This document shows, piece by piece, positions 7,393 to 57,659 of a stretch of 64,000 nucleotides of DNA (positions are counted from its first letter, which is position 1; each line of letters opens with the position of its first letter). A program made the translations under genes and the position numbers. The notes below the pieces were generated by a model. It searched no databases. It saw nothing but the letters and a program-made list of their open reading frames with translations, and was not told the origin of the DNA. The DNA lies in IMG/VR virus record IMGVR_UViG_3300033463_000109, positions 2,925-66,924 of that record; one strand, written 5' to 3'. Origin of the DNA: a virus.

Positions 7393-7393
7393 T

Positions 7394-18306: not shown

Positions 18307-18326
18307 TTTTATTTATACTCCTTCTT

Positions 18327-18599
18327 CTATACATCTGTAATTGCTAACGTTTGTGTATCACCACTAATTGTAGCTATAATATTATATTCTTCGCCAGCAC
18401 TTGGTGCATCAGTAATAGTTAATGTACAAGTATCTCCTGTTATTGTTTGTAAGATATAATATGTTGAACCACCACCGGATGGAATGCTTAAAATTTCGCT
18501 TGGAAAATCTTGTGGATTAATAAGAGCTGATGTTCCCTTCTTTGCTCTTATAGCATCTGCAATAGCCTCAAATAAATCTGCTAAATTTGTATAACTCAT
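18327..18599 (-). CDS. hypothetical small protein
   Basis: 90-aa ORF. Confidence 0.3.
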   Translation of the reverse strand: MSYTNLADLFEAIADAIRAKKGTSALINPQDFPSEILSIPSGGGSTYYILQTITGDTCTLTITDAPSAGEEYNIIATISGDTQTLAITDV

Positions 18600-18612
18600 T
18601 ATTTAAGCCTCC

Positions 18613-20838: not shown

Positions 20839-21583
20839 CTTCTACTAGCCTCCTTATTAGCCTAATTTAATCCATTGCTTATTTTCTGCATCAAAAATAT
20901 AAACTGTGCATGTATCCATCTCAAGCAAAACAGATCCATTACCAACGCCTTCAGTTGGCTTTGCATCTGTGCTTAGGCAATAATACTCATAAGTTTGTTC
21001 ATTGAAAGGTGTAATCATCTGTATAATTCTCCTTAATTTCAAGAATTTAGTCTTTCTAACTAATTAATTTAGCAGATTTATAAGCATAATAAAATAAAAG
21101 AGAGCCTCAAAAAGCTCTCTTTTTAGCATTAGTTTAATTTTGCCAGATTATATGCAAATTTTGCCAAGTACTACTAATAATACTATTATACCAATAGTGC
21201 CTATGTAAAATAAAACGTCTTCTTTATTCATCTGCTTGCTCAACAGTGTCTTCTTCAGGTGGTATATCTTCATCACCTTCAATATATGTATAAATGTTAG
21301 GTATGTCTATTGCATCTATATACTTATCACCTGTTTCATTTTGAATGATATACTTATTAGCATCACTATAAGTATGAACAAATTCATTTCCTTCAATTTC
21401 TATAATTTCTTGAATTAACATATTAACCTCCTACATTGCAAACATAAATGATACATAGTATGTCGTACCTGATTGTATATACGATTCATAAAGTTGTCCA
21501 CCCGAGCCTATACTATTACCTGTCATTTCGTTTACAGTTATGAGTGTTCTTGTCCACCAGGCTGCTCCTGTAGTAGTTCCTGC

Positions 21584-23662
21584 TTTATACTTTGTTCTAT
21601 AAGAATCAGAATTATGACTATTTCAATATGCTAACTTACCTAATATACTGCCAGTTTTATAGCTTATAGTTTCGTTACTATTTGCATTGATTTCTCCATA
21701 AGAGTTTATAAAGATTTTTACAATGGCATCCGAAACACTGCTATCTCCTTGATATTCATGATTAAAATATTTTATCTTAATATTATGTAATTGTGCTTTT
21801 AAGTCACTAGCTAATACATTATATAGTGTGCTATCTACATAAGCTTTAAGTTCTGAATTGCCATAATTTCTACCATAAAGTGGATTATATTTATTACCTG
21901 TTTCTTTGTTAAAGAAATATTCAGCTGTTGTTCCTGTTTGTGCACAATCAAATGTAATATATGTGTACATATCGTTGTCAACATCATAGTATCTACCTTC
22001 TAAGAATTCCATAATTCTTATTGTATAAGTATTACCATCTTCACCTATAGTATCTTTAGTATCTCCAATTTGCCAACCTATATCTTCTGCTATTCTATTT
22101 TCTGCTACATATCTTATTTGTGATCAAGAGTTGTTTGCAAATCCTGTTGTTTCATAAGGGTTATTAACTCCGTCATATACGCTTACAAAGATAGCTAAAC
22201 CTGCAGATGCTGTAACTGTATATGACAATGTTGATGTTATAGTAGTTGAATTAGCTCTGGCTTCGTAAATAACATAACTTGGATCATTTGGTGTATACTG
22301 TATAGTTAATTGAGTTCCTACTGGTATCCAATCACCTTCTTGATACGTATTAATTCCATCTGTAACTTCTACAGAGCAATCTAAACCTTTAAGTGATTTT
22401 AATTTCGTGTGTGTTTGTGATGTAGAGATTTCGCAATAGTAAGGTTCACCTACTATAGCTTCAGTTACTTGTGCACTTGCTGGTAAAGCGCTATTACCTC
22501 TTGTATAGTTAGAATACCAAGTTAATGAATAACCTTCTTCGTTAACAGCAGGTAAAATAGTTGATTCAGCTTCTGGCAACCACCCCTTAATCCAAGAAGC
22601 ATATGAAGACCAATTTGTTTTTACTTTTGCTTCATGTACTTGGTTGTACGGAACGAATAATAACGTGTATTGCATATTATAAAAAACATTAGATTGCGTA
22701 ATATTAGGAACGCTTAAAAACTTTGCTACGTTGTATTGCCAATATCCAAAAGAATATGAACCCGAAACAGTTGCAAGTACTTCAGGTAAAGAAATATCCA
22801 TATACTTAAATCTATAAGAGCTAGAATTCGCACCTATACAATAACTGCTGCCTAGAGTAGTGAATGTAGCATTTGTAAAATCTAAAGTTATTATGCTACT
22901 AGAAGGGGAACTTCTTGAAACACCCAGTTGTCTAAAAGCATGTTGTCCTACAGATGATACTCTACCTTTTAGCTTAAAGCTCGTTGCATAGTCTAAATAA
23001 CCAAAAGCTTGTGTACCTATTAAACCATTGACTTCTATATCAAAAGCACAATAATTATTTCTTATTGAACCAAAAGCATATTCAGCTACTGAACCTAAAA
23101 TACCTGTTACACTTTTTAAGTTTGCACCATTAAATGCATAGCTACCTACGTTGCATTGTTGTGCAAAATGTAGTTCTATTGTCTTATTAGATGTACTACC
23201 ACCTAAAGCATAAAAAGCATATGTGTTTATATTTGTTACTTTAGGTATACTCAAAGATGTACACAACTTACAAGAGCTAAATACATAGCTACCTATACTT
23301 CTACATTCTGGTAATGAAATTGATAAAACAGGGCGAGTACCTCCTTCTATATAATCTAAACTGAATGCACAATTACCTATAGTCTCTACTTTTGGTAATT
23401 CAAAAGTTGCAGGCATAGTAACTCCTTGAAAAGCATATTGACCTATAGTTATACAATTTGGTAATGTAGGAAAAATATTCATTGTACTCTCCCTATAGAA
23501 CATATAAGGTCTAACAGAAGTCCATGTAGATAAATCTAATTGCACATTTGTTAAGCTATTATCATTAACTTGTTTTAAGTAATCATTATCTGGTATGCTT
23601 ACACCGCCACCAGCTCCTGCTAATACTTTTCCATTATATACTACTATCTTTCTATCTGCCAT
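21584..23662 (-). CDS. BspA-type leucine-rich-repeat surface/tail protein with two in-frame TGAs
   Basis: Pieces 22124..23662 and 21623..22012 are in the same frame. TGA at 22124-26 and 21623-25. TAA at 21584-86. Repeats 'IGxxAFxxCxxLxSIxIPKVTxI'. Confidence 0.55.
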
Positions 23663-23667
23663 ATTAT

Positions 23668-24528
23668 TTATTCCTCTATTGCTTCAAATGTTATAGTGCC
23701 ATTATTATAAAGTGTGGATCAGTAGGTAGCCGCCTTATAGCTTTCAATTAAGCTTTCTGGCACATATACAGTTATGCCGGACTTGCCCCAATCAGTGCTA
23801 ACTAAGCTACAAACTGTGCTAGCACCTAATGTAACTGCAGCAAGTTTTGGGCAATTAAGAAATAAGCTTTCACCACTACTAGTATTATTTATTTTAGTTG
23901 CTTTTGGCAAAATAATTGTTTCTAAATTACTACAATAGGCAAAACATTTTCCAACAGTTATGCATTCAGGTAAAGTTAAAGTTTTTAATCCATAATTGCT
24001 TCTAAATGCCGAATTTCCGACTGATGTTACTTTTGGCAAATCATATGAAGATACACTAGAACAACCGCTAAAAGTTTCACTATTTAATGTAGTTAACTTA
24101 GGCAAAGAAATAGTTCCTGATAGTCTATTATCACTTGAAAATGCACCTAAGCCAATATCTGTTAGGCCTGCTGGATTTAAACCTGCTATTGTTTGCAAGT
24201 TTGTACATTGCATAAATGCATATGTGCCGATTGAAGTCAACTTCGGTATGCTAATTTTATAGCCTGTCAAACCAGTGCACCTTGAAAAAGCATAATTTCC
24301 CAATGTTGTAACATTTGGCAAATCAAGCTCAACTAGCTTTGGTAGACGGCATGACCCACCTGAAGCACTGCCTGATAGATTGGCAGTCACTTTAGTTACT
24401 TTATCTGTTTTAATAGAAGTAATACTGCCATCTAAAATACCTGATAAATCTGGAATAACATCTATAGTTGGCGTTCCAATATTACCTGTTAAAACTTTTC
24501 CATTACATGTTACTACTGCTTTACTCAT
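23668..24528 (-). CDS. BspA-type leucine-rich-repeat protein (read through TGA 23719-21)
   Basis: 269-aa ORF with 'LPNVTTLGNYAFSRCTGLT...IPKLTSIGTYAFMQCTNL'. Ends at TGA. The frame continues 16 codons to TAA 23668-70. Confidence 0.5.
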
Positions 24529-24972
24529 CTATATTCCTTCTATTCAGTTAATTGCTTTTGTGCCATATTTTGTAGCTGTGCCTTCAAACCATATAGCATC
24601 ATATTCTTTATTAGGTAGGCCTCTTCTATCTCTTATAGTTTGATACCAATATCTTATAACACTTGGTATTGCTACTATAAATAACTGTAACGGCCCAAAA
24701 ATTATATTTTGTAATGAATGTCCAAATTCATGTCTTCTTGTAGGTTGAAAATAATTTTCTCCTGAGTTCTCTATAAAAGAAATAACCCCTAAATTTAATC
24801 CTCCTCAATTATTTCCTACAACAACTATATAGCTAAATCCATTCTTATAGATAGGGCAACCAGCTAAGCCTAAAATAACTAAGCCAATTAAACCTGGTAT
24901 TGAAAGCAACGCTCCCCAGGTTAATGATAGTATCCAATATAAAATCTTTAATAATGTCTTTTTTATATCCAT
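24529..24972 (-). CDS. small integral membrane protein with in-frame TGAs
   Basis: ATG at 24970-72 with several predicted TM helices. In-frame TGA at 24805-07 and 24544-46. TAG stop 24529-31 directly before the next ATG. Confidence 0.35.
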
Positions 24973-24974
24973 TG

Positions 24975-25784
24975 TTATCCTTCAATCTGAAAGTCTATGT
25001 TTGACAAGTCTATATTAAAAGCTGCTACACAATAACAATATTGGTACGTTGCATCATAGTATGTGTCTATATAGCTGCCAGGGCTATTGCCTGTGCAATA
25101 CATTCAAGCTGCTGTCGAATTTGTTGCTGCAGCTGAACTGAATCGATATACATTAGCATCATCATCAGGTAAATCAAACATATTTTTTTTAATAGCTGTA
25201 GTGCTAATATTATAACTATTATTAAAATATGATACAATATCATCTATGTCTAAAGCAAAGCAATTCAATTCTCCATTTGTCTTTTGTGTCACTTTTGTAT
25301 AATAAATATTCATTTGTGTTGAATCATCATCTACCTGTAGACAAAAAGTCTCACTTCCGCTATGAGTAGTGCTTAGAGTATAACAACTTTGGACCCTATT
25401 AGTAGGTATAATTGCAGCTTTTACATTGGTAGCTAATGTATTATAATAAGTATTATTTAATTTTATTGATAATGTGCTATTTGTATAATCTTGATAATAA
25501 TTACCATTATCAAATTGAGCTGTTTTACTAGTTGTATTAAATGCTGACGCACCAACTTTATTTGATACTTCAAGTAGCTTAGCTACATTACCGCTAATAC
25601 TTAACACTCTAAAACGTATATTTGTGCCATTGGCTAATGCATTAAAGTTAATTATATCTCCTTTAACAGGCATTTTTTTATTAGCAGATCAAACTTCAAC
25701 GTTACCATTATATACCTTTTTAATTTCAGTATTACCATAAAATATTTTCTTTATTTGGTTTGTTCCAAAAAACATTCCTGACAT
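24975..25784 (-). CDS. structural protein with two in-frame TGAs
   Basis: ATG 25782-84 after RBS 'agagagg'. TGA at 25689-91 and 25104-06. TAA at 24975-77. The 25104..25673 track ORF is its central part. Confidence 0.45.
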
Positions 25785-25795
25785 AAAATACCTCT

Positions 25796-27703
25796 CTAGC
25801 CTGAAATTAAATAAATATATCCACTATATCTATTTGAAGGCTCTGAAGATAGATATACAATATGTATACCGCCATCTGATATAGCTGCTGTTGGAGCAGT
25901 TGTTTGTAATGTACACATTGAAGCATCTAGCTTTGAATATATCATATTTTCAACTGATGTATTATTAGTTAGTCTAAACCAACCCAAACCATTAAGTGCT
26001 CAGTATGCTTTACCATCTGCTATTCAAACTCGATTACCTTCTATTTGATTTTGTTGGCCTGTTCCTGGTCAAGTTTTGACATTTCAAGTTAAGGTAGCTT
26101 TATCTAAAACATATTGATTTAAGCCTAATGAGTAATAAAGATTATCTCCATCAGACCAAATGCAGATACCATCAAAGCTTGTTAAACCTGACCATGTTTT
26201 AGTAGATCATGTAGATGTTGATTTATCTAAAATATACTGAGTTGAACTGTTTGAATAATAAATATCTTCTCCGTCTGTTCAAACAGACCTACCATCAAAA
26301 TCTGTTAATCCTGTTCAAGTTTTAGTTGACCAAGTAGATGTTGATTTATCTAAAACATATTGATATGAGCCATATGAATAATAAGTATCAGTGCCGTCAG
26401 TCCATATATACTGACCATCTTCTGGAGTAAGGCCTGTCCAACTCTTAGCTGACCAAGTAGAAGTTGATTTATCTAGCACATATCAGCTTCCTAAAATCCC
26501 ACCAGCTTTAATATAAATATTCTCTCCATCTGTTCAAGCACTTTGACCATCAAGATATGTTGCACCTGTTCAGGTTTTAGCTGACCAAGTAGAAGTTGAT
26601 TTATCAAAAGCATATTGATAAGACATATACGAATAATAAATATTGTCCCCATCTGTTCATACATATTGACCATCGATAGCTGTTAAGCCGCTACTGTCTG
26701 GCATCTTACTTCAATAAGCTTCCATTAGCTTATCTTGCTTCTTTTCTTCAACAGCTTTAGCACTTGGCACTTGGCTCTCTCTTGATAAAGCTGATAACTC
26801 TTGCGTAACGAATGGCCCTTCAAAAGCTAATGTTTTGTCTAGTATATATTGGTCAGAGTCACTTGAATAGTAGATATTATCATTGTCTGATCAAATATCA
26901 CGCTTGTAAAAATCAGTGATACCAGTTCAAGTTTTTGTTTCTCAAGTAGATGTTGACCTGTCTAAAACATATTGAAAATAGCTGCTATTTGAATGATATA
27001 TATTTTTGCCATCAGATCAAATATACTGTCCAAATAAGTTATATAAATCAACATTATCTCCAGCTATTCAAATCTTTTCTTCTCAAGCAGATGTTGTTTT
27101 ATTTAAAATATATTGATCGGCTCCATTTGAATGATAAATATTACCATTGTCTGTTCATATATGTTGACCATAAACATTGTCAAACCCTGTCCAGATTTTT
27201 TGTGACCAAGTAGATGTGGCTTTGTCTAGCACATACTGATTGTTGGGACCAACCGACCAATAGATATTCTCACCATCAGACCAAATACTTTCAGATGTAA
27301 ATTCTGTTAATCCAATCCAAGTTTTTTCAGACCAGGTAGATGTAGCTTTGTCTAAAACATATTGTTCAGAGTTGTTTGAATAATAGATATTATCTCCATC
27401 AGATCAAATATAATCTCCTCTAAAGCTTGTAAATCCTGACCATGTTTTTTCAGACCAAGTAGATGTAGCTTTGTCAAGTACATAGTGAGTTGAGTCAGAA
27501 TAGAAAGTATTATCACCATCAGACCATATAAGTGACCCTGCAAAACCCGTTAATCCTGTTCAAGCTTTTGTTGATCAATTATTTGTATATTGATAATCTT
27601 TTACTGTGTTATCTTGCTTCTCAGCTAATTGTCCAGAAACTTGTGCATCATATTTTTCTTTAAATCTTTGTAGTTGTTCTATCTTAATTACTTCATTAGC
27701 CAT
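25796..27703 (-). CDS. tandem-repeat (~40-aa 'YVLDKSTSTWS...DG.NIYYS' units) structural/receptor-binding-like protein with many in-frame TGA (Trp) codons
   Basis: ATG 27701-03 with RBS 'aaggaaaag'. Same frame as terminal piece 25796..25987. DNA repeat of ~120 nt. No ORFs in the track because of roughly 20 in-frame TGAs. Repeat copies align TGG with TGA. Confidence 0.5.
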
Positions 27704-27725
27704 ATCTTATTCTTTTCCTTTACTA

Positions 27726-28424
27726 TTAATTAAATAAGTTATCTATATCATTATCTGTTGCAAATGTTAATGCATCTTGTTTATTTACTATATTTGCCAC
27801 AGAGATAGAGTTTGTTCCATCAGTTAAATTACGAGATAAGTATAAATCTCTCCATCTATTCTTTCCTGTACCTGTTCCTAAATCAACATTACCAGAACCT
27901 CTATCATAAGGAATAACTTTTGATGCATTTATTTGGACATATGTAAGATTAGTAGGATCACCTAATTCTATATTATTATTTAATCCTAATAATTGAAAAT
28001 CTCCATTAGTCCATCGTCCATAAATATACTTATATCTAGTAATATAAATATTACTATCAAATATCTTTGGACCTGTAATAGTTTGATTTCCATTTAATGT
28101 TACATAGTTACTTAAATCAGGTTGATTTTCCTTAATTACTTCCTCAATATTTTTAGCATCCCATTTAGTATTATCAAAATCTTCTGCTACATTTACTGCT
28201 GTTTTACATTTATATACTTGACCTTCATAAATAACTACATCACCTACTGCATATGTTGAAGTATTATCATATTCTTCAGCAATATTTGTTAAATCGGTTT
28301 TTGTGGCTAACTCAGTCTTATCTGCTTTAGCCTCTATAATGTCGGAAGTGCTAATAGCTGCAGCAGCTTGTGTGTCAGCTATAGTAGCTACCTGTGTATT
28401 TGTACTAAATGATGAATTTGGCAT
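27726..28424 (-). CDS. tail-fibre-like protein
   Basis: 232-aa ORF with TAA stop. Confidence 0.45.
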   Translation of the reverse strand: MPNSSFSTNTQVATIADTQAAAAISTSDIIEAKADKTELATKTDLTNIAEEYDNTSTYAVGDVVIYEGQVYKCKTAVNVAEDFDNTKWDAKNIEEVIKENQPDLSNYVTLNGNQTITGPKIFDSNIYITRYKYIYGRWTNGDFQLLGLNNNIELGDPTNLTYVQINASKVIPYDRGSGNVDLGTGTGKNRWRDLYLSRNLTDGTNSISVANIVNKQDALTFATDNDIDNLFN

Positions 28425-28445
28425 TCTCTATTCTCTCCTTTACTA

Positions 28446-29360
28446 TTACATTACTTGAGCACATCTTAAAATAATTTTTCCATCGCCACTATTTAAATAT
28501 GTTGAAATTTCATATAAGTCTGAACTTTCAGTTACAAAGAATAACCCAGCATATTCAAAGCTTGCATTTCTATTTAATGCTATGCTATGTGATGTGCCAT
28601 CAATTTTAATAGCTATTTTAATAATATCATTTTGAAGTGAATCATAATCATATGGCCAAGCAGAAGGTGTAATGACTAAGTAGTGGTTTGTCTTTAATGA
28701 AGTCCAATCACTTGCACTTACTATCAATGAGCTTGACATGCTAATTAAATCTTTAATAGTAGCACGAGTTGATTTTAAATTGTCTATATCAGTATAAATA
28801 TTACTTAATTTAATTTGGCTCCATTTAGTTGGGTCAAAAGCGCCTGTTTGTGTAGGTGCTTGTATACATCTATAATATAGGCCATTATAATTTACTATAG
28901 CACCCTTAATATATAGAGTATTTATGCTATAAGTAGGAGCTAAAGCAGTTAAAGTCATGTACTCTTGCAATACTTCTAATGCTTTAGTCATATCAGCTGC
29001 TGTTAAAATATCTTGCACAAAACTGTTTAGTATTAGTTTACCATTTACAAGTGTAGCATTTTTAACTGCTGCTGGGAAATCTGCCCAATTATAAGACTTT
29101 TGTGTAAATATTTCTTGACATTTAGCTAACGTTGGCTCTGAACCAGCACCATACATACGTGTTAAGTTTATAATCTTAAGGTAGTTTGTAGTAAATGCTA
29201 AGCCAGTATAGTTCCACATAACAATTTCATCTATATCTTGTGTTAATATTAATAGACTTTCTTTATTAGCTTCTATGAGTTCTAAATACTGTATTGTTGT
29301 TCCAGCTGCTTTAAGTGTAATACGCTCATTAACATTGTAAGAATTATTAGCATTAGGCAT
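28446..29360 (-). CDS. structural protein
   Basis: 304-aa ORF. An in-frame TAA at 29391-93 bounds it upstream. Confidence 0.45.
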   Translation of the reverse strand: MPNANNSYNVNERITLKAAGTTIQYLELIEANKESLLILTQDIDEIVMWNYTGLAFTTNYLKIINLTRMYGAGSEPTLAKCQEIFTQKSYNWADFPAAVKNATLVNGKLILNSFVQDILTAADMTKALEVLQEYMTLTALAPTYSINTLYIKGAIVNYNGLYYRCIQAPTQTGAFDPTKWSQIKLSNIYTDIDNLKSTRATIKDLISMSSSLIVSASDWTSLKTNHYLVITPSAWPYDYDSLQNDIIKIAIKIDGTSHSIALNRNASFEYAGLFFVTESSDLYEISTYLNSGDGKIILRCAQVM

Positions 29361-29393
29361 AGCATATGAAATATAAAGTATGTCGCCAGCTTT

Positions 29394-32300
29394 ATAATCT
29401 AATGAACTACCAGATATAGTAGCAACATCACCTACAGTATTTGCCCAAGTATATTCACCAATATATGTATTTGTTACTGCTTGTGAAAAGTTTACATCGA
29501 TAATACTAGCCTTATCTACTTTTGTAGCTAAAGCATCATATACACCACCAGAGGTTACTAAGTTTTCACTATCTTCTGTTGGCTCATCTTCAATAGATAA
29601 TAAGTCTGCTTCACTTGACGGTAAACTAATCTTACCTGTGTTGTCAACTGAATAAGCTGTTCCGTCAATTTCAATACTTGTTGCTGCATTTACATTAACA
29701 TTTTTATTTACAATAGCTAATGGTGTACCATTTAAATCTATTGTATCTATTTTACCACCAGCTAAATCTATTAATTGTAGAATACTAATTGCTGTCCATT
29801 TTAATGGATCAAAATCTTCTGCAACTGTAATTGCTGTTATACATTTATATAAAGTATTATTATAAATTACTACATCATTAACATTATAAGTTGCTGTATT
29901 ATCATAAGTATCTGTAATATCTGTATAATTTACTTTACCTGCTAATGCATTTTCTACATCACCAAAGCTATCTATTGCTGTGCCATCTTTAATATTTGTT
30001 ATTTCAGAAGATAGCTCACCTGATTTCTCATCTAAAAGAATTTCAGCTGCAGTTGCTCTAGCTGTTTCAGCACTTATAGCACCATGTAATGTAGCTTCTT
30101 CATTAGTTGTTAAAAACCATCTCTTAGCTTGTGGAGGTTCTGCACCACTATAAGCTAATACTTCTAGTGATGTATTTGTAAATGCTGCCCAACCAAAGAT
30201 ATATAAAACATTTTTTCAGTCTGCTGGTGCATACCAAGCACTTTCATCTGTAGCCTCAATCTCTTTAGTTGTGCCTATAGCATAGATTAAAGTCAATTTC
30301 TTTTGGTTATCTTCAATAGCAGTATCAGCTAGTATAGTATCCAAGCTAGCTACTAAGTTAGTATAAGCATCTTTCTTATTAGACCATTCATTTGCTCTAA
30401 TTTGTGTGTCAGTTAATGAGGTACGTCTATCTATAAGTTTTACATACTTAGTCGTTTCATCTACAATACTATTATATTCTACTCAGATGCTACCTATTAC
30501 TTCATGTTGTTCTTCCAAGTCTAGATCTGTAGTTATATCTTCTTGACAAACTTCAACAAATAAATCTAAGTCTGTTTTTAAATTTGCAGATGATGTTCTG
30601 CTATCAAAATATATACTATGAGAAGTATATGCAATATTTAATATGCCATCAAATGTAGCATCATTATAGAATTCAGCTTTATTTGATTGATATTTACCAT
30701 CAATACCTAAACCAATAATTGTGCCTAACTTATTACTATTTATTGTAATATTAGATGGAGTTGATGGTGGATATTCATAACAAGTAGAGCCTTTACCATT
30801 TCCAGCATTATGTTCCCAGCCAGCTCTTACCTTAACATCACCATTTGTTGTATAATAGCTTTGTCCTGTTGGTTGTGTTGCAATATCATACTTATTAAAG
30901 CCTGTATTGTTATTTGTTGAATAATTTAATATTCTATTTGCTTGCTGTGATGTCTTATTAGGATTTGTTTGAATGCTTGATAGCTTATTAGCTGTAAGCT
31001 TTAAGTCATTATAAACATTTATTGTTGTGAAAGGAACTAATGTCATTGTTCCCTCTTGACTTATAGGTTGTGGCTGTTGTGTAAATTCTATTTTGTAAAT
31101 ATAATTATTTCTAAATTGTCCACTATCTTGACCTGTATATCTAATATAATAGCCATTATAATTTGAAGTAATATAGTTATTTATTTCAGCTGGATTGCTT
31201 ACATTAATGAAGGCTTCTTTTTCTAATTGGTCTTGAACAGCCTTTGTAGTTGGAGCATTATTATTATTTATATTTCCGGCTTGACCCTTAGTAAATGAAA
31301 CTTCAAAACCTTGCGGAGTAGCTGTAATAATACCATCAACTTCAACAATAGTCTTTAAGTAGCTTCCATCTTGTCCTACATTTGCTGTATTTAACGCTGC
31401 AATTTTTGTATCTGTATATGTTTTTGCAGCTAATGTTGTAGGCGCATTATTATCTGTTGGTGTCTCAAAGTTGGTATCAAATGCTTTTGTATGTGAATGA
31501 GCAATACCATCAGTTTCAGTAATATAATCTACATACTCACCATTTGTTGTTGATTCAGCTGTATTATCTAAAGCAGCAATAGCTGAGCTTACTGTGCTTT
31601 CAGTAGCTAGCTTGTTAGTGCTTGCATTATAAGTGCCATCTACAGCAAAGTCTACATTTTTATCTTGGTCAATTGGTAGCTTTGTCTTATCACCATTAAT
31701 TGATAGCGTATCAATTTTACCACCTTCTGTTTTTACATAGTTTTCGGTAGCAAGTTGATTATTATAAGCAGCATCATCTGGAAGAATATCTCCGGCATCT
31801 ACTAATGTGTGATTAGTATCATCCCATACAACAAGTTGACCATCAACTAAAGCACCTCTTGTAGCGATTTTTTGGCCTTGATTTGTATCAAAGTCAAACT
31901 CTCCATCAATATATTTGCCTTCGCCTAACATCAAAGCATTTTCTACAGGGTCATATAAGCCAACACCTTCTGCTTTAGCTACATAATATTGACGTCCTTG
32001 TGTAAATGTTAATGAATCATCTAATTTATATTTATTTGTTTCATATTCATAATAATATGTGTCAGGCTTATAATCTTGCTCTAACAAAGCATATTCAGCA
32101 TATTCGCCTGTAAGAGCCACTACACCTGTTAAATCAGTTAATGGTGCATTTGTACTATTAGTAACTAATAAATTAGATTTAGCTTGAATAGTTTCTTGGT
32201 CAACAGTAGTAGTTGTGCCCTTAACAGTTAAGTCTCCCATAACTGTTGTATTATTTTTAGCCGTTAAGTTTCCTTGACCATCTACTGCTATTGCTGTATC

Positions 32301-32549
32301 AAACGTATCAAGTCTGCTATCTAAAGCACTTTCTGCTGCTCTTGCTGTTTCTGCTTCTTGAGCTAAATCTAGTGATAAAGCCCTTTCAGCAGCCTTTGCT
32401 CTAGCCTCTTCGTCGTCCACATCAGCTACTCTATTAGCTTCTTCAGTATCTATTCTATTTTTTACATCATTATTAAGCTTATTAAGAACCTTATCTGATT
32501 CTTGTTTATAAAGCTTTAATTCTTCTAATGATACTATTTTATCACTCAT
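29394..32549 (-). CDS. giant tail-fibre protein. The 30483..32549 portion is secure; the extension to ~29394 through TGA codons is likely.
   Basis: The 688-aa ORF ends at TGA 30483-85. The same frame stays open for at least 30 further codons. No M-initiated ORF is listed for 29361-30482, which fits multiple TGAs. Nearest in-frame TAA is at 29391-93. Confidence 0.35.
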
Positions 32550-39395: not shown

Positions 39396-39476
39396 GTAAT
39401 ACAAGCCGCTGCTCTACCCCTGAGCTACACCCGGCATACTGTGTCGGGTGATGGGAATCGAACCCATGACTCGCGG
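39396..39476 (-). ncRNA. permuted tRNA-like unit (3' half then 5' half; anticodon-stem halves split between the two)
   Basis: Minus sense: 'GGGC GCCGC GAGTC ATGGG TTCGATT CCCAT CACCCGA C' + 'ACAGTAT G' + 'CCGGGTG TA GCTC AGGGGTA GAGC A GCGGC'. CCGGGTG/CACCCGA pair 6/7. GCGGC/GCCGC pair as an anticodon stem. Confidence 0.35.
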
Positions 39477-41734: not shown

Positions 41735-41783
41735 TTTTTTATATTCCTTTCCTTTATTTATTTGGCTCAGCTGTTATATAAGG

Positions 41784-41864
41784 TGCTCTACCGATTGAGC
41801 TACTGATAGCTTCGCAGCTACCAGACGGGGCTCGAACCCGCAACCACCCGCTTAGAAGGCGATC
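41784..41864 (-). ncRNA. circularly permuted tRNA-like unit: 3' half (anticodon TCT arm + T-arm + acceptor 3' strand), 7-nt linker, then cognate 5' half (acceptor 5' strand + D-arm)
   Basis: Minus sense: 'ATCGC CTTCTAA GCGGG TGGTT GCGGG TTCGAGC CCCGT CTGGTAG C' + 'TGCGAAG' + 'CTATCAG TA GCTC AATCGGTA GAGC A'. CTATCAG pairs with CTGGTAG (6 Watson-Crick pairs + 1 G-U). Confidence 0.4.
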
Positions 41865-44723: not shown

Positions 44724-44811
44724 TGGTGTCGGATGAAGGACTTGAACCCTCGTAAACCTTTCGGCCCCCTGGATGTAAGCCAGGTGCTCTAACCAACTGA
44801 GCTAATCCGAC
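44724..44811 (-). tRNA. tRNA-Val (TAC) with unusually long variable region
   Basis: Acceptor GTCGGAT/ATCCGAC. D-arm 'GCTC AGTTGGTTA GAGC'. Anticodon arm 'CCTGG CTTACAT CCAGG'. T-arm 'GAGGG TTCAAGT CCTTC'. CCA encoded. Confidence 0.65.
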
Positions 44812-44820
44812 ATAATTTGT

Positions 44821-44861
44821 AATAAAAAAGATGCTTGAGTTTTTTGTTTGTCCCAAGCATC
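44821..44861 (-). terminator. rho-independent terminator-like hairpin upstream of the tRNA block
   Basis: Minus sense 'GATGCTTGGGacaaacaaaaaaCTCAAGCATC' followed by T-run (plus 'aataaaaaa'). Confidence 0.4.
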
Positions 44862-45373
44862 CTATAAATCGTTTTAATTATTATATACTATAATGTATTT
44901 AACAATCCAGGTCCTGAGACATATTCTTACTACCAAAGCTAATAGGGCGTGGGAAGCAATAAGAACTAACTGATGTTCTTCCAAGCACTAAAGATAAGGT
45001 ATGTCTCCAAGATCTCATGTTCATCATTTTTTGTTTTCCTTTTGCACTTCTACGTGCACACATAATAATTTAGCGTTATGTTTTGCTTAGTTTTTTATTT
45101 TTTTCATTTTTTGTAAGTAGTGTATGCTTTTCCCCTATCACCAGCTGCAACTTTACGATAGGTCCTTTTCTAACTTCTTTTCTCACGGTGTATGCTTTAT
45201 TTAGAGTTGAGTCGCTCCTTCAACTATACGCACCGAATAGGTTAGCTCTGGCACTGGTCTATCTCTCTTTTGAGAGGCCTGTATCTCAGGCACATATTAG
45301 CTTACTATTATATTATACAGTATTTTTTTTAATTTGTAAACTATTTTTACAAACTTTTTTTATTTTTTTATTT

Positions 45374-46294
45374 TTACTTTTTATAGCAGTTCTTATAAAA
45401 ATCTGGCATATGTCTAATCAACCACTTTTTAGCACTTTGATGCGATACATTAAGTAGTCTAGATAGGTCGGCAAGCCAGCCTGGAGCATTAAAATTAATA
45501 TTGCATTTTAAAATTATCTGCTCACGTTCTTTATTTGCTATATTAGCTTGTATCTTAAAGCTATTATCTGTCTCTCTTTTTGTTTTGCCTCTTATAAAAG
45601 CATTATCAAAGTAATTAGGATAGTGCTTAATTGTATCACGCACTTGGCCCCTGGTTAACCCTGTAGTATTTTGAACAGCTTCTTGCCAACCTTGCTTACT
45701 AAAGTCTACTTTGCTATCTAATATTAAATTAAGTCGTTTAGCCCAAATTTCAGGATCAAGCACACTTATTGTGGCTCTCCCTAAGCTGTTGACTCTACCT
45801 TGCTCTATTAAAGCTTCTTTTTCAAGTTGCTTCTGCTCTCTTTTTGAAATAAACTTTTCAATGAAAGCTGAATTTATAATAGCATCTTTGATAGCTAGTA
45901 AATAACTATGCTTTTCTTTTCTATTTAAAGCTTGATAGTCTGGCCAATATACTCTACCTATACACTTCCAGCCTAGATTAGATAAATATTCTGTTCTAAC
46001 TCTGTCATGCTCTTGCATCCAAGCAAGCTTATGCTGACTGCCATCAATTTCTAAATATATTTTTTTATCTGGCCAAGCAAAATCTAAAGTATATCTGTCA
46101 ATTTGTAGTTCTTGTGCCTCAAATATTTTTTCTTTCTTTAGCCAAGCTTTAAAATATTTTTCAGGATAACTCTCTTTAGATGAATGATTTAGCTTAAATG
46201 GCACCTTGTCAGGATGTTCATTTAAGTATTTTTTTCGTGCTTCACTAATCTTTCTCTTAGTTTCTTCTGTATGTTTGCTACCGTAAGTGCCCAT
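45374..46294 (-). CDS. homing-endonuclease-like protein (NUMOD-like N-terminus + Vsr/DUF559-like endonuclease domain)
   Basis: 306 aa. 'GSKHTEETKRKISEARKK' is a NUMOD-type motif. 'YTLDFAWPDKKIYLEIDGSQH' gives the D..D....E.DG..H restriction-endonuclease-like fold. Sits between tRNA blocks. Confidence 0.5.
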   Translation of the reverse strand: MGTYGSKHTEETKRKISEARKKYLNEHPDKVPFKLNHSSKESYPEKYFKAWLKKEKIFEAQELQIDRYTLDFAWPDKKIYLEIDGSQHKLAWMQEHDRVRTEYLSNLGWKCIGRVYWPDYQALNRKEKHSYLLAIKDAIINSAFIEKFISKREQKQLEKEALIEQGRVNSLGRATISVLDPEIWAKRLNLILDSKVDFSKQGWQEAVQNTTGLTRGQVRDTIKHYPNYFDNAFIRGKTKRETDNSFKIQANIANKEREQIILKCNINFNAPGWLADLSRLLNVSHQSAKKWLIRHMPDFYKNCYKK

Positions 46295-46357
46295 ATTTTA
46301 TTTCGCTCCCTCTACTCTATATAATTTAGCAAATAAAGTTGAGAGGTTTTTACAAAA

Positions 46358-46628
46358 TGGTGCGCCTGGAGGGATTCGAACCCTCGACCCCACGATTACT
46401 TCACCACATTTTTTTCAAGTAGTGGTCCGGACTTTGTCTTAGCCATATATTACTACTTAGGCTCTCCGTGTAAAGTCTCTACACATAAGAATTTCTTCTC
46501 TTGCTCGGCGTTATCATATGCTTTACACTTAGATTTCACCGAATTAGCGGAGTGTTCATCAATAAATTTCTTTATTGAGCTTCTATTAGTCAAAAGTCGT
46601 GTGCTCTAGCCATCTGAGCTACAGACGC
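46358..46628 (-). tRNA. tRNA interrupted in the anticodon loop by a ~180-nt group I intron (anticodon probably TTT, Lys)
   Basis: 5' exon (plus 46601-46628 reverse complement) 'GCGTCTG TA GCTC AGATGGCTA GAGC A CACGA CTTT...'. 3' exon '...TAA TCGTG GGGTC GAGGG TTCGAAT CCCTC CAGGCGC A CCA'. Acceptor and anticodon stems pair perfectly across the insertion. Confidence 0.55.
46413..46596 (-). mobile_element. group I intron (compact, no ORF) within the tRNA anticodon loop
   Basis: The intron contains 'GTGTAGAGACTTTACACGG' and 'AAGACAAAGTCCGGACC'. These resemble the group I P7/R-S core elements 'CAGAGACTA' and 'AAGATATAGTCCGGACC'. Confidence 0.5.
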
Positions 46629-46632
46629 ATAT

Positions 46633-46708
46633 TGGTGGAACGCATGGGATTCCAACCCATATCTTTCGGATTAAGAGTCCGATATATTAGCAATTATACG
46701 AACGTTCC
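46633..46708 (-). tRNA. tRNA-Lys (CTT), T-loop 'TTGGAAT'
   Basis: Acceptor GGAACGT/GCGTTCC. Anticodon arm 'TCGGA CTCTTAA TCCGA'. CCA encoded. Confidence 0.6.
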
Positions 46709-46761
46709 ATATGGCCTAGCTATCATACCGCAAATTTAAAAGATTTGTGCTCTGTCGAGCT

Positions 46762-46781
46762 CGAAATAAGCATAGGCTCTA
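46762..46781 (-). repeat. conserved motif, copy 7 (between tRNA-Gln and tRNA-Lys)
   Basis: 'cgaaataagcataggctcta'. Confidence 0.45.
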
Positions 46782-46785
46782 TTTA

Positions 46786-46860
46786 TGGCGCCGGGTGAGG
46801 GACTTGAACCCCCATAAGCTGGTTCAAAGCCAGCTGAATTAACCCTTATTCTAACCCGGT
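46786..46860 (-). tRNA. tRNA-Gln (TTG)
   Basis: D-arm 'GAAT AAGGGTTA ATTC'. Anticodon arm 'GCTGG CTTTGAA CCAGC'. T-arm 'GGGGG TTCAAGT CCCTC'. CCA encoded. Confidence 0.7.
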
Positions 46861-46862
46861 AT

Positions 46863-46896
46863 AAAAAATGCACTTCCTTTTTATCAGAAGTGCACT
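46863..46896 (-). terminator. rho-independent terminator-like hairpin
   Basis: 'GCACTTCC ttttttatca GAAGTGC', followed in minus sense by T-run. Confidence 0.35.
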
Positions 46897-47054
46897 TAGC
46901 TTTCATTTTTGCTTTTATAGTTTAGCTTTCTATAAATGCGCTTCTTTCAAGGCAAGGATAACCTAAGAATACTTGAGTACTCTTTTGTTTAGGTTGTTGT
47001 TTATATTGTTTAAAAATCAACTTTGTCATCTTTGTCTTTTCCTTTATTTTTATT

Positions 47055-47130
47055 TGGCCACGCATAGAGGATTCGAACCACTGTTAGATGGCTGAGAACC
47101 ACCTGTCCTAGTCCACTAGACGAATGCGCG
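47055..47130 (-). tRNA. tRNA-Glu (CTC)
   Basis: Acceptor CGCGCAT/ATGCGTG. D-arm 'GTCT AGTGGACTA GGAC'. Anticodon arm 'GGTGG TTCTCAG CCATC'. CCA encoded. Confidence 0.6.
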
Positions 47131-47199
47131 TTATGGTCGCACCTATGATAGGGTCTGGCCGAACTGACTATCATAACTTGTACAAGTCTTTCGGTGCAA

Positions 47200-47274
47200 T
47201 GGTCACGCCTACGGGAGTTGAACCCATATTCCCACCGTGAAAGGGTGATGTCCTAACCATTAGACGAAGGCGCG
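47200..47274 (-). tRNA. tRNA-Glu (TTC)
   Basis: Acceptor CGCGCCT/AGGCGTG. D-arm 'GTCT AATGGTTA GGAC'. Anticodon arm 'TCACC CTTTCAC GGTGG'. T-arm 'ATGGG TTCAACT CCCGT'. CCA encoded. Confidence 0.65.
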
Positions 47275-48058
47275 ATATAAATTTGCCTGCTCTAAATCAA
47301 AGATAACTCTCGTTTTCTTCTATAACTCACAGACCAGCACTTGATAGCCATTTACTAGTATAGCTATCATTAAACTGAGTTTGTTCCTTATGACTCAACG
47401 TGGTCCGCATTACTAGCTCTTTCGAGTGCGTGTTGAGTTCTCTTTTAACCCCGGGCCCGAAGGATTCACCGGGGTGCGATCCCAAAAACTCCTGGGCCCA
47501 AAGGCTTCCAGAAGTGCAATCGTATTTTACTAACCTTTTGGACTAAACTTATCAGCTAGCATTTTTCAGACAGATTCAAACCCTTTATTCAGCGTTTTTT
47601 CTAACTCCTCTGCCATGCCTACTCCACTATGCTACTCCGCTTTCAGCTTTTTTGAAGCAATTTCCATTCATCTACTAAGACTTCGGTCTTGTCTGTTTGA
47701 CTACTAACTGGCCGGCGCTCACAAGCTTTAGTATTCTGCTTTTTACCTCTGCTTTAATTTAGTCTCATCCAGCAGGTTGCTATACTAATTGTTGTTGCAT
47801 TCCCTTATAGTAGGCGTTTCCTAATGTTTGACGAGCCCAACCTCGTCTGGCGCGAAATTCGCTTGCGTTCTCCTGGCTTTCTTAACCCCACTGACTTGCT
47901 TTTGCAAACATGATGCAGTACCTTGGATGGTGGAGGTTTTTTAGCTTACATGGCTTCTCTGGCCATTTGACACACTCATAATCGTGCGGACATCCCTGGC
48001 TCTACCTGAGCCGAATGACTGGTGGGACTTGCTATTGCTATCCATCTCAGTAAGCTTC
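47275..48058 (-). ncRNA. ORF-free, GC-enriched ~780-nt block between tRNA-fMet and tRNA-Glu. Candidate large structured RNA(s) or intron.
   Basis: No ORF of 60 aa or more, even when TGA is allowed. GC-rich helices such as 'ccccgggcccgaagg...caccggggtg'. Cotranscribed with the tRNAs. Confidence 0.3.
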
Positions 48059-49047: not shown

Positions 49048-49126
49048 TGGTGGAACCTGTCGGTAATGCTCCGACCTGCTTTCCGCATTGCAAGTGCGGC
49101 GACCACTCTATGCAGTCCCAGGCCCC
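49048..49126 (-). tRNA. tRNA-Ala (TGC)-like, non-canonical T-loop 'AGCATTA'. Overlaps the last codons of CDS 49108..50088.
   Basis: Acceptor GGGGCCT/AGGTTCC. Anticodon arm 'CCGCA CTTGCAA TGCGG'. T-arm 'GTCGG AGCATTA CCGAC'. CCA encoded. Confidence 0.4.
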
Positions 49127-50088
49127 ATTTTATTTAAGTATGATGGCTTATCTCTGTCGTATAGCTCAGTAAAATTGCTGCCATATACTTTTTTACAATA
49201 AGTTAAATATTTTTTTATACCATTCTTATAAATAATTTGATACTTTAAGTGCTTTGGAAAACAATCAATTTTTGCTTGAACTTGTTCTGTCCAGTAGTTT
49301 TTTATCTCTACATAAGTATCATCTATTATAAAATCTGGATAATAATTATGGTACTCACCATTATAGCTATAATTAAAACATTGTCTATTTCTTTTAACAC
49401 TAATATTATGGTCTAAACAATAAATTACATAAGCAAGCTCGTAGCTAGAATCGCACTCAATGCCTTTATATGTTCCATATTTAGCATTTCTTGTTGGATT
49501 TAGATTTCCACCATGTAGTTTGATAGCTGCAATAGTATTATTCTTTAATAACATATGCTTGCAAGCTTCACTACAAGTTTTTTTAGAACGACGCTCATAT
49601 GGTAGCTCTTTGCCGCAAATAACACAGAATTTAGGAGATAATTTATAAATTTCTCTATTTTCTATTGCTTTTTGTTTATTATCCGCTGCAGTTCCACTAG
49701 CTACTACCTTAAGTTTATCTGAAATTTTATGTTTTGTAAACGCAGATAACTTACGAGTATTAGCACAAGCTCTCGAACAAAACCTACCTGATCCAAATTT
49801 TTCGGTCATTACTTTACCACATTTTTCACAAGTATGCTTTTCAGACAACCATTTGTAGTTTGATAGCTTAATAGCATTAGCTGTTTTCATTTTACAAGTA
49901 TTACTAGAGTTTTTTCCTCTATTCTTAGCTTCTAAATCTACTTGTTCAATGGTTTTACCTTTTAATAATGCATGTATTTTACAATGGCTCTTATGTCCAT
50001 TATAACTTTGTGCATTTTCAAACTCTCTTCCACATTCACATTTATACATATTTATGCCTCTCATTATAGTATACAATAAATTTAGCAT
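49108..50088 (-). CDS. zinc-ribbon + PD-(D/E)XK-type endonuclease-like protein (possible homing endonuclease)
   Basis: 326 aa. Multiple CxxC/CxxH pairs. C-terminal 'CDSSYELAYVIY...YYPDFIIDDTYVEIK' gives a D...D/E.K nuclease motif. Two upstream 'TTGTATAATAT'-type motifs. Confidence 0.45.
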   Translation of the reverse strand: MLNLLYTIMRGINMYKCECGREFENAQSYNGHKSHCKIHALLKGKTIEQVDLEAKNRGKNSSNTCKMKTANAIKLSNYKWLSEKHTCEKCGKVMTEKFGSGRFCSRACANTRKLSAFTKHKISDKLKVVASGTAADNKQKAIENREIYKLSPKFCVICGKELPYERRSKKTCSEACKHMLLKNNTIAAIKLHGGNLNPTRNAKYGTYKGIECDSSYELAYVIYCLDHNISVKRNRQCFNYSYNGEYHNYYPDFIIDDTYVEIKNYWTEQVQAKIDCFPKHLKYQIIYKNGIKKYLTYCKKVYGSNFTELYDRDKPSYLNKMGPGTA

Positions 50089-52768: not shown

Positions 52769-52863
52769 GAGGGGCTGCAGGATTCGAACCCGCGCCACTG
52801 AGTGTGGACCTCAGTCTTTCTACGGTTTTGAGGACCGCTGTACTACCGTTATACGAAGCCCCT
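52769..52863 (-). tRNA. suppressor tRNA, anticodon UCA (reads UGA), class II (long variable arm), CCA not encoded
   Basis: Reverse complement 'AGGGGCT TC GTA TAACGGTAG TAC A GCGGT CCTCAAA ACCGT AGAAAGACTGAGGTCCACACTCAGTGGC GCGGG TTCGAAT CCTGC AGCCCCT C'. Perfect 7-bp acceptor. Anticodon 34-36 = TCA, with C33 instead of the usual U33. Confidence 0.6.
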
Positions 52864-56648: not shown

Positions 56649-57659
56649 TTATCTATAAATATGCTTATAGCACTTAGAATAGTTGCCTGTAACAACCTTG
56701 CTATTTGTTTTAACTACAAACTTATTGATCTTATCATAATCTACCTTATCTGGCACTACATCTAATTCCTTAGCTTTTTGTAGTCTGTCCTCTAAGTAGT
56801 TTAGATAGTCTCTAAATTCTTGTGTTAATTGATTATCCTTTACAAACTTACCTGCTCTGATTTCAAGTAAGAAATCTCTGTCAGCAGCTCTGTATGTATT
56901 AATTTCGCCCTTTTCTAAGATGTCAAAGCACATATGATATAGTCTTACTAAGTGCATAATATGCTTATTTAACTTAGCTTCTGTTGGCTTGTTATTTCTT
57001 TGTCCTGCTTTTGTAAAGTCTCTTTGAATATCTGTTAAAGTATTTAGAGCATCTTTAATTTCGTCTGTTGTTCTATCAACACAGTTAATGCTCCATAATA
57101 GCTTATCAGTATCAACTCTAACCTTGATTTCATCTTCCTTAAACATTGGTGTTCTGTCAGCTAATTTCACCTTAGTAACGTCAATTACTTCAGCTGTTCT
57201 CTTAGCTCTCATTTCTTCAGTTACTTCGCCATGCGTAAAGGCATTTTCAACTCTTCTTAATTGTGAATTAGCATAACCTGCAAAACTATATAAACACTTC
57301 TTGCTTACAAAGTCTTTTGCCATTCCAATTAGCTCTTCACCAATGTCATTGAAAATAATATATTGATTAGCTCCAAGCATTTCAACAACATTAGGGTTTG
57401 TATTGCATACTAACTTAATAAACTTATTAAACTCATATAAAGTTGTATCTGTTTCTGCATCCATTCTTTGCTCAAAATGCTTTAGACCAATTAGCTCATC
57501 TACTGTCGGAAGCATAACACCTCTAACATCAATATCAGAGCCTTCAATATTTGTACCGTAACTCCAGCTGCCACCTAGCGTAATAAAGCATAGTCTATCA
57601 CGATAATCATTTACCCAAGCATATTCAGGTCTCTTTAATACTTCCTCTAAATCTAACAT
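56649..57659 (-). CDS. Pol-beta-superfamily nucleotidyltransferase (possible tRNA 3'-end/CCA-type NTase)
   Basis: 336 aa. 'GGSWSYGTNIEGSDIDVRG' matches the GS...G....SDxD NTase motif. Confidence 0.45.
   Translation of the reverse strand: MLDLEEVLKRPEYAWVNDYRDRLCFITLGGSWSYGTNIEGSDIDVRGVMLPTVDELIGLKHFEQRMDAETDTTLYEFNKFIKLVCNTNPNVVEMLGANQYIIFNDIGEELIGMAKDFVSKKCLYSFAGYANSQLRRVENAFTHGEVTEEMRAKRTAEVIDVTKVKLADRTPMFKEDEIKVRVDTDKLLWSINCVDRTTDEIKDALNTLTDIQRDFTKAGQRNNKPTEAKLNKHIMHLVRLYHMCFDILEKGEINTYRAADRDFLLEIRAGKFVKDNQLTQEFRDYLNYLEDRLQKAKELDVVPDKVDYDKINKFVVKTNSKVVTGNYSKCYKHIYR

Follow-up and report, generated by a model that had tools for sequence, protein, structure and literature searches.

A predicted group I intron in the anticodon loop of a phage tRNA-Lys(UUU) gene, adjoined by a candidate homing endonuclease gene

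We analyzed a stretch of 64,000 nucleotides (nt) from the IMG/VR virus record IMGVR_UViG_3300033463_000109 (positions 2,925 to 66,924; hereafter 'the window', whose own coordinates are used throughout), with attention to a split tRNA-Lys(UUU) gene on its minus strand (46628..46358, a stretch of 271 nt). The gene belongs to an array of about 30 tRNA genes that extends from 39.6 to 52.9 kilobases (kb), and its anticodon loop, CUUU-UAA (the hyphen marking the point of insertion), is interrupted between tRNA positions 35 and 36 (35/36). Read 5' to 3', the upstream exon is GCGTCTG-TA-GCTC-AGATGGCTA-GAGC-A-CACGA-CTTT, with U35 (46593) serving as U-1 of the 5' splice site, and the downstream exon is TAA-TCGTG-GGGTC-GAGGG-TTCGAAT-CCCTC-CAGGCGC-A-CCA. 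The intervening sequence starts with UGACUAAUAG and ends with GUGGUGAAG, its terminal (omega) G lying at 46399. The exon elements and the cloverleaf spanning the insertion that the initial annotation of this DNA had described are all present, on the minus strand, as are the two core-like motifs quoted in it: GTAGAGACTTTACACGG at 46482..46466 and AAGACAAAGTCCGGACC at 46440..46424, the latter covering the joining segment J8/7 and the 3' strand of helix P7. The insertion, put there at about 180 nt, measures 194 nt, and its sole internal open reading frame (ORF) is a meaningless TTG ORF of 46 amino acids (aa), in keeping with its earlier description as ORF-less. The features of the locus are collected in Table 1.

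Table 1. Coordinates of the split tRNA-Lys(UUU) gene, the predicted elements of its intron, and the adjoining genes. L083 and L045 are related loci on a phage contig and a bacterial chromosome, respectively.
Feature	Coordinates	Strand	Composition or basis
tRNA-Lys(CUU) gene, uninterrupted	46633..46708	-	4 nt upstream of the split gene
5' exon	46593..46628	-	acceptor 5' strand, D-arm, anticodon stem 5' strand, loop C32 U33 U34 U35
Predicted group I (IC3-type) intron, ORF-less	46399..46592	-	RF00028, structure, covariation, minimum free energy (MFE) z = -3.3
P1	46580..46596	-	exon CUUU and intron UG (46596-46591) against internal guide UAGAAG (46585-46580)
P2 hairpin	46559..46578	-	8 base pairs (bp), GAAA tetraloop (L2); compensatory changes relative to L083
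P3 5' strand CUCCG	46548..46552	-	pairs with CGGAG at 46468-46464
P4 (UUCGGUG/CGCCGAG) enclosing P5	46504..46543	-	P4 46543-46537/46510-46504; P5 46533-46526/46520-46514
P6 hairpin, GAAA loop	46484..46503	-	93.7% paired
J6/7, P7 5' strand, J7/3, P3 3' strand (GTAGAGACTTTACACGG region)	46464..46482	-	structure, RF00028
P8 hairpin	46441..46463	-	canonical 11-nt receptor motif CCUAAG...UAUGG, GUAA loop; 93.2% paired
J8/7 (AAGAC) and P7 3' strand AAAGUCC (46435-46429)	46429..46440	-	structure, RF00028
P9 hairpin, GAAA tetraloop (L9), then GAAG ending in omega G	46403..46426	-	compensatory CCAC/GUGG to CUAC/GUAG in L045
3' exon	46358..46398	-	U36 A37 A38, anticodon stem 3' strand, variable loop, T-arm, acceptor 3' strand, A73, encoded CCA
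Free-standing nuclease gene, 306 aa	45374..46294	-	Pfam NUMOD3 and DUF559; starts 63 nt after the tRNA

The split gene was missed both by ARAGORN in its default mode and by the Rfam tRNA model; with intron detection enabled, ARAGORN called a tRNA-Lys(ttt) at exactly c[46358,46628]. The intron boundaries that this program reports, such as i(39,183), ignore the U-1 and omega G rules and were reset by eye where used, and several of its isotype labels at related loci ('Leu taa' for L083, 'Asp' for L053, 'Pyl cta', 'Tyr ata') disregard the same rules. Four further intron-mode calls within the window merely join neighboring tRNA genes and were set aside as artefacts. Once the 194-nt insertion is removed, 77 nt remain, which ARAGORN depicts as a canonical tRNA-Lys(UUU) with an encoded CCA, the identity that the initial annotation had read from the reconstituted loop CTTTTAA. 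The rejoined anticodon arm (CACGA-CUUUUAA-UCGUG) is identical in 18 uninterrupted phage tRNA-Lys genes, found in IMG/VR via a 16-mer of the 5' exon, and the spliced gene aligns without gaps to those 18 genes and to the uninterrupted tRNA-Lys(UUU) genes of related phages. Because of this match, and because pairing of the acceptor stem across the intron reaches 99.1% in 64 split homologues, the cloverleaf across the insertion is far beyond chance. The gene is the sole tRNA-Lys(UUU) in the window, where AAA makes up 3.9% of codons. The Logan runs SRR10393135 and SRR10393136, from the source samples, contain an identical locus.

A permissive search of 501 nt with the Rfam group I intron model RF00028 gave an end-to-end match on the minus strand (46602..46406, model positions 1-253, 40.7 bits, E 4.7e-9). 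A complete secondary structure was drawn by hand, in which every core helix from P1 to P9 could be accommodated and all proposed pairs are standard in the window. The U35·G pair in P1 marks the 5' splice site, and the RF00028 alignment sets the conserved U at the same base. The 5' strand of P7 consists of a G, a bulged A and GACUUU (46479-46472); with that bulge, P7 forms the guanosine-binding helix, in a pseudoknot with P3. P5 contains a tetraloop-receptor-like motif (UCUAAG...UAUGA). An unconstrained MFE fold (-43.2 kcal/mol) recovered P2, P3, P4, P5, P6, P8 and P9. The full-length model match, the drawable helices and the covariation across 64 relatives described below thus uphold the earlier proposal of a group I intron and, judged by its sequence, the insertion is of the compact IC3 (Azoarcus-like) type. 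It lacks P5abc, carries GAAA on both L2 and L9, and has receptor motifs in P8 and P5; the IC3 placement follows from these traits and from the class of the nearest published relative. Its description as small for its class holds for group I introns generally and fails within its own lineage, in which 165-230 nt is normal.

The run of U residues at the exon junction permits two splice options, CUUU-UAA (35/36) or CUUUU-AA (36/37), and only with the first does P1 contain a U·G pair and the intron also end in G. L045, a relative with 89% identity, reads CUUU-AGAA..., with just three U before the intron, and the insertion therefore lies at 35/36; the 36/37 site, which would require the intron to end in U, was rejected. 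The intron end (...GUGAAG at 46399) is followed by UAA UCGUG, and the terminal G is found also in L083, L045, L117 and L162. Insertion at 35/36 recurs in L117 (Lys UUU) and L162 (Lys CUU), and the homologous intron of L023, in a tRNA-Lys(UUU) gene on a 332-kb IMG/VR contig, sits at 36/37. The surroundings of two of these loci were also recorded: in L117 (on a 444-kb contig) the split tRNA-Lys(UUU), at 6003-6272, stands in a tRNA array beside genes for a CCA-adding enzyme and a Thg1-like protein (6703-9068), and in L162 a gene for a GIY-YIG+NUMOD1 endonuclease (2313-2939) lies 1.1 kb upstream of the split tRNA-Lys(CUU) at 910-1171.

Related introns were retrieved with the core 16/17-mer (GTAGAGACTTTACACGG), which returned 2 related introns in IMG/VR, 42 loci in GTDB genomes and at least 119 loci in metagenomes. 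Among the matches listed, 99 of 165 stretches have the core within a split tRNA according to ARAGORN in intron mode, with isotypes that comprise Asn, Leu, Arg, Lys, Thr, Glu, Tyr and suppressor-type anticodons. Structure was then counted on a MAFFT alignment (A1) of 64 non-redundant pre-tRNAs. Standard pairs filled 89.0% of cells, as opposed to 35-44% when the 3' partners were slid by 1-3 columns, and the covariation score was 0.520 (0.07-0.13 in the slid versions); changes on both sides were seen in 64 of the 82 pairs, and none of 500 shuffles reached the observed measures. P3 is 99.7% paired, with both of its variable pairs changing on both sides (in 33 and 41 sequences); P4 is 93% and P1 83% paired. 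P2, P5 and the P9 tip score lower (58-72%), being variable in length and not aligned by structure in MAFFT.

In all probability the element is a real group I intron capable of splicing, and the phage tRNA-Lys gene that harbors it is functional; we assign this reading a probability of roughly 0.88, and the homing model discussed below lies outside that figure. Following transcription the intron would fold such that P1 presents the U35·G pair and the P3-P8 and P4-P6 domains form, as sequence and comparison show, while the GAAA loops of L2 and L9 would probably dock into the receptor motifs in P8 and P5 and thereby clamp the domains together. It would then remove itself by guanosine-initiated two-step transesterification, as is expected from its family membership, and the anticodon stem, acting in place of P10, would hold the exons for ligation into a normal tRNA-Lys(UUU).

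Several points weigh against this interpretation. The RF00028 match anticipated by the initial annotation, while end-to-end, falls under the gathering score of 50, which is an operational cut-off and not a structural feature of the family; the model is described as under-scoring bacterial tRNA introns (Williams 2020 preprint; PMC13011429), and the close relative L023 scores 49.1 bits. A permissive Rfam scan of 15 kb did not list the intron, which was dropped by speed filters; because those filters dropped an intron that the 501-nt scan found, absence from large Rfam scans is not evidence. A P10 pairing was sought, and only 1 bp was found. P7 is invariant in the comparison set, and thus without covariation support, because the search pattern fixed its sequence. 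The tetraloop-receptor contacts are proposed from sequence motifs and from the Azoarcus structure, and the case for splicing as a whole is built from sequence and comparative analysis.

The sub-threshold Rfam score, the very small size of the intron and its missing P10, together with a host that presumably supplies tRNA-Lys, could also be accommodated by a dead gene, in which splicing has been lost or become too poor and the tRNA persists as a pseudogene within a decaying array. We judge this improbable, since the catalytic-core elements, the U-1·G pair and omega G are all intact and the closest published 35/36 relatives self-splice in vitro (PMC13011429). The exon stems are moreover kept by compensatory substitutions, both in the 64 split genes (acceptor 99.1%) and in three diverged copies: the exon differences among the window, L083 and L045 form compensatory pairs in the acceptor, anticodon and T stems, a pattern that points to selection on the spliced tRNA and therefore to splicing taking place. 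The gene also encodes the only Lys tRNA of the array with a UUU anticodon.

The splicing-competent intron that we favor has counterparts among the Azoarcus-like IC3 introns of bacterial tRNA genes, which share with it the core blocks AAUUCGG.GAAA, ..CGCCGAGC.., GUAGAGACU..AC.CGG and AAGA.A.AGUCC. Common to both as well are the compact, ORF-less form, the location in the anticodon loop, the GNRA loops on P2 and P9 and the receptors in P5 and P8. The window intron differs from them in its tRNA-Lys(UUU) host gene, its insertion at 35/36 rather than at 36/37, 34/35 or 33/34, its P7 sequence (GACUUU/AAAGUC) and its phage genome. In the Azoarcus-like introns it is the anticodon stem, and not P10, that aligns the exons (Zaug et al. 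1993, cited in PMC3984707). Group I introns at 35/36 were described in 2026 in bacterial tRNA-Asn/Asp/Tyr genes (Nakagawa et al., PMC13011429), in a survey of bacterial genomes only; most of those 35/36 cases belong to subgroup IA in Patescibacteria, members of the class self-splice in vitro and, like the window intron, they are missed or mis-set by ARAGORN and tRNAscan-type tools. The nearest published relative is a 210-nt IC3 intron at 35/36 of a tRNA-Asn(GUU) gene in the Bacillota_A genome GCA_022846035.1 (PMC13011429 Table S5), which has 71% global identity to the window intron, identical P7/P3' and J8/7-P7' blocks, the same insertion position and the same 3' exon start (UAA). Introns in tRNA-Lys(UUU) are already known at 34/35 from the same table: those of Actinomycetota interrupt the same isoacceptor and are of IC3 or IB2 type and 218-255 nt long, but they lie one nt upstream, belong to other intron sublineages with GAGACUGGACGG cores and reside in cellular genomes, with no linked nuclease reported. 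Among the Table S5 rows examined there was no Lys intron at 35/36. New in the present case are thus the combination of Lys(UUU) and 35/36, the phage genome and the linked Vsr-like nuclease.

The genome that carries the split gene appears to be that of a large bacteriophage which reads TGA as Trp. This conclusion is well supported, and we infer phage status from indirect features because no virion hallmark gene was found among the large ORFs of the window with PHROGs and Pfam. The minus strand encodes all 49 ORFs that reach 150 aa or more, the GC content is 33%, most of the encoded proteins are without a PHROG or Pfam family match, and relatives of a 655-aa protein that flanks the array, 48-56% identical to it, occur in IMG/VR on 12 contigs with lengths of up to 233 kb. 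A megablast search of 44800-47300 against GenBank phages gave no match. Translation with TGA as Trp (code 4) fuses fragmented ORFs between 13.8 and 32.5 kb (13849-32549, minus strand), and in-frame TGA codons are confined to one gene block; under this code 25796-27703 yields 635 aa with 22 in-frame TGA codons and 28446-32549 yields 1367 aa. A tRNA with anticodon UCA (52769-52863, minus strand, 95 nt, Rfam 49.1 bits), missed by default ARAGORN, has the loop CCUCAAA, a long variable arm and a 7-bp acceptor, and is presumably the opal suppressor that implements the change from TGA to Trp. In the L083 nuclease gene (2159-3070), six Trp codons are TGA (W51, 74, 109, 184, 203 and 291), which are TGG in the window. 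These features bear the signature of the large phages with recoded stop codons that Borges et al. described (bioRxiv 10.1101/2021.08.26.457843).

Were the window instead a segment of a bacterial chromosome or plasmid with a tRNA array, the element would be one more bacterial tRNA intron. Bacterial tRNA arrays exist, no virion hallmark gene was identified in the window, and an 89%-identical copy lies on a genuine bacterial chromosome (L045, with SpoVAC and SpoVAD). We nevertheless regard this origin as highly improbable, in view of the single-strand layout of 49 ORFs that mostly lack a family match, the relatives of the 655-aa flanking protein on 12 viral contigs, the pairing of an in-frame TGA block with an opal-suppressor tRNA as in recoded phages, and the difference in GC content between the window (33%) and L045 (47%).

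The nuclease encoded downstream of the split gene combines an N-terminal NUMOD3 DNA-binding motif (20.5 bits, borderline against a cut-off of 20.4) with a DUF559 domain (Vsr-like, PD-(D/E)XK clan; 34.9 bits, cut-off 20.6). A sequence search of the PDB yielded only a weak match, to the DUF559 protein 3hrl (E 0.011), and the EDxHD family was not assigned. We regard this protein as a candidate homing endonuclease linked to the intron. The order of interrupted tRNA and then nuclease is kept in the window, in the phage contigs L083 and L332, and in the bacterial locus L045. L083 (85-94% identical to the window) and L332 preserve the same array order, with a 95%-identical intron followed by the nuclease gene. 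L045 is part of the chromosome of a spore-forming member of the Clostridia (SpoVAC, SpoVAD, HAD hydrolase; GC 47%); its intron is 91% identical to that of the window, its nuclease has 82% amino-acid identity, and its exons are about 79% identical, an approximate value in view of the shortness of the sequences and the omission of CCA from the window exon. The two loci match from the 5' end of the tRNA onward, through the tRNA, the intron and some of the spacer and on into the nuclease gene, with no homology upstream of the tRNA. In phages that belong to this clade but are less closely related (L193, L197 and L200) the tRNA-Lys(UUU) gene is uninterrupted, and L012 likewise has an uninterrupted allele. 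Judged from these sequence comparisons, tRNA, intron and nuclease form a three-part cassette with a history of transfer between phages and a Clostridia chromosome.

The N-terminal module of the nuclease is shared by 195 metagenomic homologues, and in 8 of 9 further neighborhoods the homologue stands directly after or between the tRNA-Lys(UUU)/(CUU) genes of phage-type arrays. In two neighborhoods (L203 and L333) the tRNA-Lys(UUU) beside the nuclease homologue is itself split, at 34/35, by unrelated tRNA-like insertions of 123 nt (L203, gene 4863-5061) and 67 nt (L333, 543-685; also L334), the removal of which restores a canonical tRNA-Lys(UUU). These insertions are not group I introns, and each displays an acceptor-like stem, a T-arm and a terminal ACCA, resembling the 'top half' of a tRNA.

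Collaborative homing is the mechanism of intron mobility that we tentatively place first, at a level of confidence just short of even. The nuclease would cleave uninterrupted tRNA-Lys(UUU) DNA within the anticodon arm or close to it; in a genome that carries the intron this target site would be broken up, and recombinational repair would copy intron and nuclease together. Such homing has been established for the psbA group I intron of cyanophage S-PM2 and the free-standing endonuclease F-CphI (Zeng, Bonocora and Shub 2009; PMC6083498), and homing in trans for T4 mobE/I-TevIII (PMC2790892). The psbA/F-CphI pair and the window locus are alike in having an ORF-less intron in a phage gene, an adjacent free-standing endonuclease gene and co-inheritance of the two; they differ in that the window target is a tRNA and not a protein gene, its nuclease is of NUMOD3+DUF559 (Vsr-like) and not Endo VII-like or HNH type, and its cleavage specificity is a prediction.

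Alternatively, and concerning mobility only, the intron might splice and yet have no connection to the nuclease, which would then be an ordinary free-standing homing endonuclease of tRNA arrays like SegB of T4; the whole cassette would have been captured from the Clostridia host (or the reverse), or the intron would have spread by reverse splicing. We rate this as a serious possibility, if somewhat under even. Whole-cassette capture by ordinary recombination would give the same pattern as homing, and the stretch that is homologous between the window and L045 takes in the exons, beginning at the 5' end of the tRNA; a co-conversion gradient was sought in the exon differences between these two loci and none was found. 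Many nuclease homologues adjoin uninterrupted tRNA-Lys genes, and both the activity and the target of the window nuclease are presumed, the target from the linkage of its family to tRNA-Lys and from the same-loop insertions. Free-standing endonucleases are known in phage tRNA clusters: SegB (PMC2330249), which like the window nuclease is encoded within a phage tRNA array, promotes the inheritance of neighboring tRNA genes, although it belongs to the GIY-YIG family and the T4 array has no intron. A second nuclease-like ORF in the window array and its domain-shuffled relatives change position in the array independently of any intron. In favor of homing, on the other hand, phage and bacterium are more alike in the intron (91% identity) than in the exons (about 79%), the tRNA, intron and nuclease order is kept in four genomes across the phage/bacterium divide, and three unrelated insertions occupy the same anticodon loop specifically beside this nuclease family. 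The last observation is hard to account for unless a target site lies in that loop.

The second nuclease-like ORF (49108-50088, minus strand, 326 aa) has a zinc-finger-like N-terminus and a C-terminal YPDF...VEIK segment that resembles PD-(D/E)XK. In L083 (5625-6542), its N-terminal part is fused to DUF559 elsewhere in the array, a rearrangement from which we conclude that endonuclease modules have been shuffled and moved. In eight further loci (L204-L211, on contigs of up to 296 kb from pig gut and other metagenomes), 2-4 tandem tRNA-Lys genes (UUU and CUU) lie beside nuclease homologues, and several of these genes are 83-87 nt in length with long variable arms, which is unusual for tRNA-Lys. 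tRNA-Lys is a frequent target of anticodon nucleases, and the long-armed genes may reflect diversification of a tRNA that is targeted by defence nucleases.

A broader proposition, which we regard as speculative and rather unlikely in its full extent, is that NUMOD3+DUF559 endonucleases of large recoded phages and their Clostridia hosts target the anticodon arm of tRNA-Lys(UUU), that carriers are protected by insertions removable at the RNA level, and that self-splicing introns are common but overlooked in phage tRNA arrays, including in the suppressor tRNAs used for code switching. If so, the protection in the window would be a self-splicing IC3 intron, amounting to collaborative homing on a tRNA gene, whereas the nested tRNA-like elements of 67-123 nt at 34/35 in other phages would need tRNA-processing enzymes to cut them out and an RNA ligase to rejoin the tRNA, and would constitute a hitherto undescribed kind of bacterial or phage tRNA intron.

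In a 2014 review (Hausner, Hafez and Edgell), all known phage introns were in protein-coding genes despite the many tRNA genes of phages, and later surveys of tRNA introns covered cellular genomes only. Our literature searches revealed no subsequent account of a phage tRNA gene with a group I intron and, for phage tRNA genes, no description in the searchable literature of a tRNA-Lys intron adjoined by a free-standing nuclease gene; literature coverage being incomplete, this is absence of evidence. The window thus provides a clean, comparatively validated counter-example to the confinement of phage introns to protein-coding genes. A scan of IMG/VR with the classical IC3 core returned at least 120 contigs, some of which may include bacterial flanks, and among the matches listed the core lies inside a split tRNA in at least 74, and many of these are 160-335 kb in length with arrays of 10-22 tRNAs; the phenomenon therefore appears to be widespread but under-described. 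Since standard tRNA finders miss split genes, phage tRNA repertoires are under-counted, and this includes tRNA-Lys and the suppressor tRNAs that implement recoding. A cassette common to a spore-forming Clostridia chromosome and to phages is also a concrete case in which two processes can be tested: the exchange of introns and endonucleases between phages and hosts, and collaborative homing directed at an RNA gene.

Among the matches listed from that scan (L212-L331), the isotype interrupted most often is Leu UAA, with Arg, Phe, Met/Ile2, Lys and Ser also present. Two different interrupted tRNAs (L239 and L244) are found on one 335-kb contig, IMGVR_UViG_3300028888_000045, 22 tRNAs accompany L245, and some of the introns are 500-1200 nt long and may hold ORFs. 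The lineage of the window intron itself recurs at 35/36 in tRNAs with the loop CUCU-AAA (anticodon CUA, amber suppressor) and a long variable arm (L104, L124, L131, L137, L140, L142, L147, L151 and L173). These amber-suppressor tRNAs lie in arrays of 10-20 tRNAs on metagenome contigs whose ORFs lengthen when TAG is read as sense (the longest from 387 to 766 aa in L140, and from 271 to 570 aa in L147); to judge from these sequences, recoded phages appear to carry self-splicing introns in suppressor tRNAs.

A related core was also seen in L026 (IMGVR_UViG_3300009008_000297, about 13870-14250), which has the same GUAGAGACUUUACACGGAG block, is not placed in a tRNA by ARAGORN, and follows the end of an ORF whose sequence resembles an HNH endonuclease; the intron lineage thus also occurs outside tRNA genes in viral contigs. 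Elsewhere in the window, two weak Rfam matches to YrlA (Y RNA-like) RNAs lie on the minus strand at 39407-39475 and 41778-41849 (36.9 and 34.2 bits, below the cut-off), each of which reads as a T-arm, an acceptor stem with a short closing loop and a D-arm, the permuted tRNA mimic typical of YrlA, and the ORF at 56649-57659 encodes an RlaP protein of the RNA-repair pathway.

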